Shown here: positions 51,525 through 53,997 of the stretch, piece by piece | Position numbering within the stretch: the first letter of the stretch is position 1 | Layout of the letters: the number at the start of each line of letters is the position of its first letter | Assembly: GCA_017410455.1 (NCBI GenBank) | Contig: JAFQQT010000027.1 | Span: 15,028 to 79,027 of the forward strand | Source of the DNA: Clostridia bacterium | GTDB lineage: Bacteria; Bacillota; Clostridia; Christensenellales; Aristaeellaceae | Direction of reading: 5' to 3' | DNA length: 64,000 nucleotides | Translations under genes and position numbers: made by a program | Notes under the pieces: generated by a model | What the model was told of the DNA's origin: nothing | Databases searched by the model: none | The model's input: only the letters and a program-made list of their open reading frames with translations

Positions 51525-52898
51525 TTACTCCGCCATCCTCTTCCGCCCCAGATCGATGGCCATCTGCACCATGTCGGGCGCGGGCGCGCCGGGGATGCGG
51601 CGCTTCTGCACGCAGGAAAGCATGCTCAGGTCGTCGAACACATCCGCCTCAAAGACCGGGTGGAAGGCCTTCAGCTCCTCCAGCGTCAGGTCGAGGAGGG
51701 CCTTGTTCTCGTTGAGGCAGTGGGCCACCAGGCGGCCGACCACCTCGTGAGCGTCGCGGAAGGCCACGCCGTGCTTGACCATGTAGTCCGCCGCGTCGGT
51801 GGCGTTGGTGAAGCCGCCGGACGCGCCGCGCTCCATGACCTCCCTGCGGAAAGTGCAGGTGCGCAGCATGGCGGTAAAGACCGTCAGCCCCTTCACCAGC
51901 GTGTCGCGGGCGTCGAAGAACGCCTCCTTGTCCTCCTGCATGTCCTTGTTGTAGGCCAGCGGAATGCCCTTCATGACGGTGAAAAGGGCCATGAGGTCGC
52001 CATACACGCGGCCGGTCTTGCCGCGGATGAGCTCGGCCACGTCGGGGTTCTTCTTCTGCGGCATGATGGAGGAGCCGGTGGCGTAGGCGTCGTCCATCTC
52101 CACAAAGCGGAACTCGTTGGTGTTCCAGATGATCAGCTCCTCGCAGAAGCGGGACAGGTGCATCATCGTCGTGGAGGCCGCGTGGAGGAAGTCCAGCAGG
52201 AAGTCGCGGTCGGACACGCCGTCCAGGGAATTCTGCGTGATGTCGGCAAAGCCCAGGAGCTCGGCCACGCGCTCGCGGTTGAGCGGATAGGTGGTGCCCG
52301 CCAGCGCGCCGGAGCCCAGGGGCATCACGTCCGCCGCGTCAAAGGCTGCGCGGAAGCGGCGGCGATCGCGCAGGAACATCTCGAAATAGGCCATCATGTG
52401 ATGGGCCAGGGTGATGGGCTGAGCCTTCTGCATGTGGGTGTAGCCGGGCATGATGGTGTCCAGGTTATCCTGGGCGATGGAGAGGATGACCTCCAGCAGG
52501 TCATTCAGCATCTCCTCGGTCTCCCGGCAGGCCTTCTTCGCGTACATGCGCACATCCAGGGCCACCTGATCGTTGCGGCTGCGGCCGGTGTGCAGCCTCT
52601 TGCCCGCCTCGCCGATGCGCTGGGTCAGGATGGTCTCCACGTTCATGTGGATGTCCTCGGCGTCCACCATCCACTCGATCTTCCCGGCCTCCACGTCCGC
52701 CAGGATGCCCTTCAGGCCATCGACGATCTTATCTGCATCGGCCTGGGGGATGATGCCCTGCTCGCCCAGCATGGTGGCATGGGCGATGGAGCCGGTGATG
52801 TCCTCCTCGGCCATGCGCTGGTCGAAGGAAATGGAAGAATGGAAATCGTCCATCAGGTGATCGGTGGATTTGGCAAAACGGCCGCCCCAGAGTTTCAT
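51525..52898 (-). CDS. argH: argininosuccinate lyase
   Basis: Trimmed to MKLWGGRF at 52898 (AAGGAGG RBS). Signature GSSIMPQKKNPD. Confidence 0.95.
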   Translation of the reverse strand: MKLWGGRFAKSTDHLMDDFHSSISFDQRMAEEDITGSIAHATMLGEQGIIPQADADKIVDGLKGILADVEAGKIEWMVDAEDIHMNVETILTQRIGEAGKRLHTGRSRNDQVALDVRMYAKKACRETEEMLNDLLEVILSIAQDNLDTIMPGYTHMQKAQPITLAHHMMAYFEMFLRDRRRFRAAFDAADVMPLGSGALAGTTYPLNRERVAELLGFADITQNSLDGVSDRDFLLDFLHAASTTMMHLSRFCEELIIWNTNEFRFVEMDDAYATGSSIMPQKKNPDVAELIRGKTGRVYGDLMALFTVMKGIPLAYNKDMQEDKEAFFDARDTLVKGLTVFTAMLRTCTFRREVMERGASGGFTNATDAADYMVKHGVAFRDAHEVVGRLVAHCLNENKALLDLTLEELKAFHPVFEADVFDDLSMLSCVQKRRIPGAPAPDMVQMAIDLGRKRMAE

Positions 52899-52974
52899 AA
52901 GTGTTGCCTCCTTAAAATATGTGAGCATTCTTATCCACGATATAGTATAACAGATGCAGGGGCTTTGTTCAATC
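52798..52974 (-). repeat. 177-bp direct repeat, proximal copy (argH promoter, RBS and codons 1-34)
   Basis: Identical to 53821-53997 except for C/T at 52938/53961. Confidence 0.95.
52944..52972 (-). promoter_or_regulatory. argH promoter (inside the repeat)
   Basis: Minus-sense TTGAAC, 17-nt spacer, TATACT. Confidence 0.55.
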
Positions 52975-53001
52975 TCTCAAAACAATTTGCGCAATAAAAT
53001 A

Positions 53002-53047
53002 CGATTGAGTGTTGAGCACACAGAGCAACACCCAATCGTTTTCCATA
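53002..53047 (-). terminator. rho-independent terminator of the 233-aa cassette ORF
   Basis: Minus-sense CGATTGGGTGTTGC..GCTCAACACTCAATCG followed by TATTTTATT. Confidence 0.7.
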
Positions 53048-53054
53048 TGGACAT

Positions 53055-53756
53055 TTACTGCAACTGCTTGTAGAGTTCTTCAAGTGTCGCAGTCTCTACT
53101 GGGGCGGGCTTGTTCGCTTGTGCTGCACGCTCTCGCTCCAAAACTTTTGCAATATGTCTGAGATGCGCGGCCGCCTCATCATTATCACAGGGGCTCAAAC
53201 GTGTACCAACATATGTCGACTGCCCTACGTATGATCGGCTGAACTCCTCTCGCCTCATACCGAATCGCCCCTTCGTTACCGTGCGTTTCCACAGTACAGT
53301 CAACAAGTATGGCATGATGCACGTCTCATATCTATCATAGTCGTGCATGCTATTTGGAATTGTGAATAGATAGTCCCCTTTCGTCAGTCTGCAGAAATCA
53401 AACTGCTGATGGGTCGCCACATTCTCGATTATCAGCCGTGGAAACCGCCAGCCGTTACTGTTTTTCACTGCTTTGGCCACATCAAGCACTTTACACAAGC
53501 AAGTAATTGGCTCACGGAACATGCCAACGTTGCCGTCCGCATAGTACCCCTTATCCCAGAATACCGCGCGGAATTCACCTATTCCCCATCCGTCACCGGC
53601 TCTATAGGCTTCTGATTCATGCATCACATCATGTTCACCATCAGCACGTAAAACCCAGTATTGGCCCACGCAGAAGCGTTCCAATGTACGGTTAGCCTCC
53701 ACCATCAAATTGTCCAGATCCACATCCCATGTGTTGATTCTTCTTCTCATGCTCAT
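53055..53756 (-). CDS. hypothetical protein (233 aa) on a low-G+C cassette
   Basis: GGGGAGG RBS. Composition is clearly more AT-rich than the flanks. No domain recognised. Confidence 0.6.
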   Translation of the reverse strand: MSMRRRINTWDVDLDNLMVEANRTLERFCVGQYWVLRADGEHDVMHESEAYRAGDGWGIGEFRAVFWDKGYYADGNVGMFREPITCLCKVLDVAKAVKNSNGWRFPRLIIENVATHQQFDFCRLTKGDYLFTIPNSMHDYDRYETCIMPYLLTVLWKRTVTKGRFGMRREEFSRSYVGQSTYVGTRLSPCDNDEAAAHLRHIAKVLERERAAQANKPAPVETATLEELYKQLQ

Positions 53757-53789
53757 AATGCAGCCTCCCCATATTGATGAAGTGGTTTA

Positions 53790-53921
53790 TCATGACAGAT
53801 CGATTCCCCGAACGACGAACATGTCCTCCTCGGCCATGCGCTGGTCGAAGGAAATGGAAGAATGGAAATCGTCCATCAGGTGATCGGTGGATTTGGCAAA
53901 ACGGCCGCCCCAGAGTTTCAT
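53790..53921 (-). pseudogene. argH 5' remnant (34 argH codons fused to 9 foreign codons)
   Basis: MKLWGGRFAKSTDHLMDDFHSSISFDQRMAEEDMFVVRGIDLS. It carries its own copy of the promoter and RBS. Confidence 0.85.
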
Positions 53922-53997
53922 AAGTGTTGCCTCCTTAAAATATGTGAGCATTCTTATCCATGATATAGTATAACAGATGCAGGGGCTTTGTTCAATC
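53821..53997 (-). repeat. 177-bp direct repeat, distal copy
   Basis: See 52798-52974. Confidence 0.95.

Follow-up and report, generated by a model that had tools for sequence, protein, structure and literature searches.

A rare orphan gene lodged between two copies of the argH promoter and gene start in a Clostridia bacterium

We analysed a 64,000-nt stretch of the genome of an uncultured ruminant-gut Clostridia bacterium of the family Aristaeellaceae (assembly GCA_017410455.1, contig JAFQQT010000027.1, hereafter the window), in which the 5′ end of argH, the gene for argininosuccinate lyase, is present twice and an 846-bp segment of foreign DNA lies between the two copies. The foreign segment (B) holds a single gene, the cassette, whose product is a 233-aa protein of a very rare family. 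The repeated segment (A, 177 bp) holds the argH promoter, ribosome-binding site (RBS) and first codons. With U for the native DNA that precedes A, the order on the minus strand is U-A-B-A-argH. This is, with high probability, a real, non-autonomous, one-off insertion with duplication of its target. A promoterless fragment of a phage or mobile element, carrying a complete gene with its RBS and terminator, would have entered the 5′ end of argH once, in an ancestor, and left two copies of the target segment behind (i.e. an insertion-duplication).

The repeat, the insert and the empty site

A repeat search and our own pairwise comparison both gave two direct copies of A, A1 next to argH and A2 farther upstream, that are identical at 176 of 177 positions (coordinates of these and all other features are collected in Table 1). 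The sole mismatch is C at 52938 in A1 versus T at 53961 in A2, and the identity stops sharply at either end with no extension. Read on the minus strand, A starts 2 nt ahead of a promoter, TTGAAC-17-TATACT, whose −10 element is TG-extended, and continues through an AAGGAGG RBS into argH, of which it covers 101 nt from the ATG on (33 codons and 2 nt of codon 34). Among the other repeats that the search found in the window, none has an insert flanked by a duplicated gene start. The locus had first been described in an annotation made from the sequence alone (the first-pass annotation). The length and identity that it gave for the direct repeat were borne out by both comparisons, its promoter and RBS in either copy by a promoter scan and the sequence itself, and its statement that the proximal copy serves an intact argH by a 457-aa ArgH with a promoter of its own. 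One detail had to be corrected: the 43-codon argH stub behind A2 was said to read into the cassette open reading frame (ORF), whereas it stops at a TGA-TAA pair, 33 nt short of the cassette ATG.

The composition of B differs from that of its surroundings. Its GC content is 0.48 versus 0.64 for the window, the GC content at third codon positions (GC3) is 0.53 in the cassette ORF versus 0.92 in argH, and the lowest-GC bin of the whole window is that at 53-54 kb. In B, a 64-nt leader with an RBS is followed by a single ORF, its terminator and a tail of 17 nt. The hairpin of the terminator has a folding energy of −26 kcal/mol (z = −3.9); a simple consensus terminator scan did not flag it. The first-pass picture of 846 bp of AT-richer DNA with one 233-aa ORF, a GGGGAGG RBS and a terminator therefore stands, in GC content, ORF and hairpin alike. 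Upstream of the cassette ATG, a consensus scan of the coding strand found no promoter-like site, so that the cassette ORF lies behind the distal promoter copy. Known RNA families were absent from positions 52400-55400.

Table 1. Coordinates of the argH locus, of its neighbours and of other repeats in the window
Feature	Position	Strand	Basis or remark
A2, distal (upstream) copy of the 177-bp repeat	53821-53997	−	Upstream flank native
A2 parts	−35 TTGAAC 53995-53990; −10 TATACT 53972-53967; RBS AAGGAGG 53936-53930; argH ATG 53921	−	
argH stub ORF, 43 codons (33 of argH and 10 new), then TGA-TAA at 53792-53787	53787-53921	−	Translation
B, inserted foreign DNA, 846 bp	52975-53820	−	Low GC; missing in MAG RGIG6305
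Cassette ORF, 233 aa, RBS GGGGAGG at 53770-53764	53055-53756	−	Orphan family of 5 clusters
Intrinsic-terminator-like hairpin, 14-bp stem, with UAUUUUAUU tract, 3′ of the cassette ORF	52992-53039	−	Folding
A1, argH-proximal copy, runs into intact argH	52798-52974	−	Derived base at the A1/A2 mismatch
A1 parts	−35 52972-52967; −10 52949-52944; RBS 52913-52907; ATG 52898	−	
Intact argH, argininosuccinate lyase, 457 aa	51525-52898	−	Lyase_1 4.7e-75, ASL_C2 3.5e-26
Gene of the 846-aa protein downstream of argH	48949-51489	−	No Pfam family
Accessory module upstream of A2, 1.26 kb	54013-55272		Missing in MAG RGIG6305
XRE-type HTH gene of the module	54890->54660		
Antitoxin gene of the module	54055-54246		Paired with Doc
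Doc toxin gene of the module	54243-54632		Fic/DOC match 1.2e-16, DOC_P1
Dispersed intergenic repeat	16338-16415, 26006-26472, 28122-28271, 40636-40782		
AATTCATAATTC-type sites	15539-15606, 26499-26566, 28337-28404, 32463-32530, 38337-38404, 42229-42296		
Tandem repeat of a 56-57-nt unit	37997-38258		

For comparison we used 80 argH loci from GTDB species representatives (1.16 Mb in total). In RGIG6305 (our contig L016), a metagenome-assembled genome (MAG) from sheep rectum, the symporter gene and argH are mostly 93-100% identical to those of the window per 100-nt bin. Their order is the symporter stop, ~50 nt with a terminator, a single A and argH, i.e. an empty site of the kind that the first-pass annotation had expected among relatives. 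Homology to the window extends ~15 nt upstream of A2, to about 54012, indicating that the outer flanks of both copies are native, the upstream one at A2 and the downstream one at A1. All 18 differences from the A of RGIG6305, 16 of them non-coding, are common to A1 and A2, which argues that both are duplicates of this lineage's own A made after the divergence from RGIG6305. At the single position where they differ from each other, A2 keeps the RGIG6305 base and A1 is derived. Judged by this comparison, the A copies are resident sequence that was duplicated, not a host copy next to an orthologue carried in by an element. None of the 80 related loci has a second copy of the argH 5′ region, and the ancient event that had been considered earlier, with diverged repeats in all relatives, does not describe them. 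On the basis of its composition and of the single-A empty site in RGIG6305, B is a foreign insertion.

The same structure is present in ~30 contigs from 16 ruminant-gut metagenome assemblies made by two pipelines (MEGAHIT with k = 141 and a second one). These contigs were gathered by exact-protein look-ups with the cassette protein, ArgH, the Doc toxin and the symporter, all of which gave one haplotype, and every contig that covers the region carries the linkage U->A(a)->B and B->A(g)->argH. The single-nucleotide polymorphism (SNP) between the copies cuts the exact repeat to 140 nt, which is below k = 141, and short-read assemblers can therefore pass through the repeat. In addition, some strains have SNPs in A1 only, at A position 52 (L005, L007, L113) or at position 158 (L111), indicating that A1 and A2 are separate loci that evolve independently. 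The flanks of the cassette contigs are 99.6-100% identical to each other. The arrangement is fixed in the sampled population, which is nearly clonal yet not identical.

The cassette protein, its expression and its surroundings

The 233-aa protein has very few relatives. A word-indexed search of 5.8 billion proteins returned only the identical protein and two distant relatives, and a profile search of 1.84 billion cluster representatives gave 5 clusters in all. There was no match in Pfam, PHROGs, PADLOC, NCBIfam or by sequence profile in the PDB. Two AlphaFold models were made, the first with a predicted local distance difference test score (pLDDT) of 58.5 and the second, with five sequences, with a pLDDT of 73.5 and a predicted template modelling score (pTM) of 0.70. 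The five-sequence model (AF2) predicts a beta-rich core between an N-terminal helix and two helices at the C-terminus, and Foldseek gave no neighbour of the models below E 1e-3 in the PDB and BFVD. The searches of family databases, PDB sequences and folds all came back empty, in agreement with the first-pass annotation, which had seen no recognisable domain in this protein. The motifs FWDKGYYAD, CLCK, ENVATHQQFDF and IMPYLL are conserved in the family.

One of the four homologues (P0005) is clearly located in a phage: within a head module, it is preceded by portal and Mu-F-like minor head genes as well as a terminator hairpin and followed by further phage genes. The N-terminus of a probable tyrosine integrase (a weak PHROG match, E 9e-4) follows 380 nt downstream of P0003 and occupies positions 898-1218 of a short contig (L015); the family may there adjoin an attachment (att) site of an integrative element. 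P0004 adjoins a DUF1902 (HicB-like) gene. P0002, on 1.1-kb contigs with 38% GC, is apparently stand-alone, and a promoter-like TTGCAC-17-TATACT was read by eye upstream of it. No direct repeats were found around the homologues. From its relatives, the cargo of B is best described as an accessory (moron-like) gene of a phage or mobile element, which here appears without a promoter of its own.

In the U-A-B-A-argH order, A1 would drive intact argH. A2 should transcribe the 43-codon stub and the cargo, which has its own RBS, on one transcript ending at the cassette terminator, and this terminator would insulate argH from upstream transcription. The arrangement of these signals supports the view that the gene was rebuilt and that a promoter became available to the cargo. 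The first-pass annotation had gone further and spoken of a captured arginine-pathway promoter. A promoter copy does stand ahead of the cargo, but the link to arginine is one of position: no ARG-box-like motif is shared with other sites in the window, and the only candidate is restricted to the two A copies.

Accessory DNA is also present on the other side of A2. The module just upstream of it combines an XRE-type helix-turn-helix (HTH) gene with a divergent antitoxin/Doc-toxin (Phd/Doc) pair and is missing from RGIG6305, which means that the spacer between the symporter gene and the argH promoter gained accessory DNA at least twice. The gene directly downstream of argH encodes an 846-aa protein that has a CxxC...CxxC motif at its N-terminus, a hydrophobic C-terminus and a long region of E/R-rich repeats, seen as repeats in the DNA at 50153-50311. 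This gene is ~50-79% identical in DNA to that of RGIG6305, as compared to 93-100% for its neighbours, and forms a second variable spot flanking argH. One cassette strain (L003) has ~50 substitutions within 320 nt of the symporter gene (window equivalent 55867-56190) on a contig that is otherwise at least 99.9% identical, and this patch looks like a short imported recombination tract.

Elsewhere in the window, at least 5 copies of an intergenic repeat of ~78-120 nt are dispersed; its conserved core, CACCTCATCACCGCCTGCGGGCGGAGCTTCCCCTCAAGGGGAAGCCGGGGA, contains palindromes, and it looks like a repetitive extragenic palindromic (REP) sequence or a miniature inverted-repeat transposable element (MITE). 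Six sites that end in runs of a AATTCATAATTC-type unit (AATTCMTAATTC) make up a recurring AT-rich motif in this 64% GC genome, and at one further place a 56-57-nt unit (AAAGGGGAAAGGGCACAGGC...GATCAGGCCTCCCC) occurs about four times in tandem. Outside the window, a similar repeat pair in a Christensenellaceae MAG (L052, positions 10202-10380 and 11366-11545) was rejected as an instance of the same phenomenon. These 181-nt direct repeats, which are 94% identical, bracket a 288-aa radical-SAM gene beside ftsZ, but they are an AT-rich palindromic intergenic element, probably a dispersed one, and duplicate no gene start.

Origin of the insertion

Neither B nor the ~8 kb around it holds an integrase, transposase or other recombinase, as the first-pass annotation had also noted; the neighbours are argG, a Na/Ala symporter, the HTH protein, Phd/Doc, argH and proteins without assignment. 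No inverted repeats pair the ends of B. The other loci, phages and plasmids to which that annotation had pointed as places to look yielded no further copy of the cassette: exact-protein look-ups gave a single locus, tblastn gave no match in phages and plasmids, and a scan of IMG/VR and JGI metagenomes with the family alignment gave none. From the coding part of A, a 30-mer was not found in IMG/VR viral contigs and a 40-mer was not found in JGI contigs. A B->A->B junction, which would mark a circle or a tandem array, is in no contig. There is no sign of mobility.

Several classes of element were considered and set aside. A transposon or insertion sequence (IS) does not fit, as there is no transposase, there are no terminal inverted repeats and the duplication of 177 bp is, as had been remarked in the first annotation, far longer than transposon target-site duplications, which have a short fixed length of 2-15 bp. 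An integron cassette was rejected because no integrase is nearby and the 3′ hairpin with its U-tract is terminator-like, no dedicated attC model having been run. A simple tandem duplication of [A-B] or [B-A] would give A-B-A-B or B-A-B-A, neither of which accounts for U-A-B-A-argH and its native U-A junction. Direct repeats are present as in a site-specific integrative element or its remnant, but there is no integrase, no recurrence and no gene end borne by an element. The earlier comparison with integrative elements that carry a replacement gene end accordingly found no support: the cassette has a single locus, no counterpart in the 80 relatives, and repeat copies that are resident sequence.

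We tentatively favour a homologous route, either Campbell-type or by one-ended homology, and would put it close to, but not quite at, an even chance. Direct copies that are each joined to native DNA on their outer side, and an empty allele with exactly one copy, are the marks of a Campbell-type event, and both are seen at argH. If the chromosomal A recombined with a 1,023-bp circle (one A plus B) in a single reciprocal RecA-dependent crossover, the observed order would result; equivalently, one end could have been joined by homology and the other closed by an illegitimate joint. The minimal homology for such crossovers is ~70 bp in B. subtilis, which the 177 bp of A exceed. Selection may have set the upstream boundary of A. 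If argH is needed, only insertions that regenerate its promoter and 5′ end would survive, and the duplication would for this reason begin just at the −35 element. Since the terminator blocks read-through, argH would be expressed only if at least the whole promoter was duplicated. Short duplications are presumably more frequent, and selection would be the simplest account of where A begins upstream. We infer the recombination route, the expression from A2 and the selection from this arrangement.

A number of points weigh against the homologous route and the history built on it. The contigs gave neither a donor molecule nor a circle nor a B->A->B junction, and B is found in no second locus or host. 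A 1-kb circle that joins the host's A to a phage-type B would itself have to be accounted for. Such a circle needs two illegitimate joints in any case, so that break repair or template switching is about equally parsimonious. Moreover, an empty allele within the clonal lineage was not seen among its contigs, although a 177-bp repeat should be deletable by RecA, which leaves either selection on B or rare loss. The presence of the cassette in every sampled strain in spite of this suggests, in the same way, that the cargo is useful or that its loss is rare.

The alternative that survives best, which we regard as possible but rather unlikely, is a de novo illegitimate event on the chromosome, with the 177 bp as a very long target-site duplication from that same event. 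In one version, a double-strand break with a 177-nt stagger was followed by fill-in of the overhangs and capture of the phage fragment by end joining. In the other, replication switched template to phage DNA and back, landing 177 nt behind its point of departure, as in fork stalling and template switching (FoSTeS) or microhomology-mediated break-induced replication (MMBIR). The sharp boundaries of A, the initially identical copies and the lack of a recombinase or an evident circular form are consistent with such an event, as is B itself, a short fragment that seems to have lost its promoter, in contrast to its homologues, which stand alone. It also needs only the two illegitimate joints common to every model and is nearly as parsimonious. 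To our knowledge, however, fill-in duplications of such a length are not established for bacteria. Random capture, furthermore, does not predict the neat content of B (exactly one gene, RBS and terminator), which selection could explain.

We consider it improbable that the structure is a decayed site-specific element, i.e. a prophage or an integrative and conjugative element (ICE) that sat in the 5′ end of argH with a replacement promoter and 5′ end and then lost all but one terminal cargo gene by internal deletion. The result would resemble a cis-mobilizable element (CIME) between attL and attR. Direct repeats around foreign DNA and a restored gene are what this predicts, P0005 is found in a phage, and the place of P0003 upstream of its putative (weakly matched) integrase N-terminus would be typical for cargo on the att side. 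On the other hand, no integrase or remnant of one is present in B or within ~8 kb, no second 5′ copy or element occurs at any of the 80 related argH loci, and the 30-mer from A was not found in IMG/VR viral contigs. The 18 shared differences, 16 of them in the fast-evolving promoter part, would require that the copy borne by the element came from this very lineage, and usual att cores are much shorter than 177 bp of near-identity. These results disfavour the decayed element, and both this and the de novo event rank below the homologous route.

We give very little credence to a stronger proposal, in which the 1,023-bp A+B unit is a recombinase-free mobile cassette addressed by homology, or in which the 233-aa protein promotes insertion with a long duplication. 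In the first case the two A copies would recombine to release A+B as a circle, which would re-enter any genome with the conserved argH start through host RecA, and the address that it carries would assure both harmless insertion (the gene is rebuilt) and expression (a promoter is captured). Finally, an assembly artefact (a chimeric join or a mis-resolved repeat), which the first-pass annotation had raised, is exceedingly improbable: all data come from short-read metagenome assemblies and five contigs (L004, L005, L007, L009 and L012) end inside A1, as expected around a repeat, but the identical SNP linkage across ~30 contigs, 16 samples and two pipelines, the exact repeat below k and the strain-specific A1-only SNPs that mark two distinct loci identify the structure as real.

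The insertion-duplication at argH points to a one-off event that domesticated a rare phage-type orphan gene. It is a clean case from nature, for which a corresponding empty site is available, of a promoterless foreign gene installed in a housekeeping gene at no cost, since a short duplication would at once regenerate the host gene and lend its promoter to the newcomer. This would be one route by which phage-derived orphan genes are domesticated without dedicated mobility machinery. The locus also draws attention to a protein family that is very rare (5 clusters among 1.84 billion), repeatedly occurs in phage or mobile contexts and is kept in every sampled member of the lineage. If more such insertions were found, they would amount to a recombinase-independent mode of gene acquisition; at present this is a single event.

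Comparison with known systems

The locus has the topology of a Campbell-type insertion-duplication, with an insert between direct copies of the homology and an empty allele that has one copy. When the duplicated fragment contains the promoter and the start of the gene, the downstream copy stays functional, as here. In contrast to laboratory insertion-duplication mutagenesis, this is a natural event with no vector, replicon or marker, and the circle is hypothetical.

Elements that restore the gene they enter include the SXT/R391 ICEs in the 5′ end of prfC, and phage 21 and e14 in the 3′ end of icd. Like SXT, which supplies a promoter and 5′ codons, the argH insert is foreign DNA in a housekeeping gene whose function is kept by a second gene end, with direct repeats on both sides. 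Elements of the SXT, phage 21 and e14 type have their own integrase and short att cores or diverged ends, and they recur at the same site in many genomes. The argH insert, by comparison, has no recombinase and does not recur, and its repeat is a resident duplicate.

Segments that lack a recombinase and are flanked by long direct repeats are known, among them the CIMEs of streptococci. A related case is the H47 genomic island of E. coli, which is reported to comprise 13 kb of DNA with attachment sites widespread among strains, and with excision and integration demonstrated experimentally (PMC3191183). With both of these the argH locus shares a small, cargo-only segment between extensive direct repeats and without mobility genes, but unlike the H47 island it occurs at one locus in one lineage, where an excision product was not observed.

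Retention of a gene by duplication is also seen in merodiploids of S. pneumoniae, in which insertions of a cassette into an essential gene during transformation are reported to come through only where a duplication has preserved an intact copy of the gene (PMC3784515). The duplications described there are 100-900 kb long with IS-derived repeats at their borders, whereas at argH 177 bp were duplicated and the gene was regenerated directly. A duplication that places a host promoter upstream has likewise been reported to switch on horizontally transferred genes (PMC11111574). The likeness lies in a promoterless foreign gene behind a duplicated host promoter; the difference is that the process described there is a tandem amplification of the transferred gene itself through microhomology, unlike the U-A-B-A-argH order.

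As with phage morons, relatives of the cargo stand alone in phage or mobile contexts (P0005 being the phage homologue) and the cargo keeps its own terminator. Unlike morons, it is chromosomal and outside a prophage and appears to have lost its own promoter, no promoter-like site having been found upstream by the consensus scan. All in all, the argH locus looks like a known kind of event, a natural insertion-duplication that restores a gene end, and like a one-off recombination scar rather than a new mobile element.

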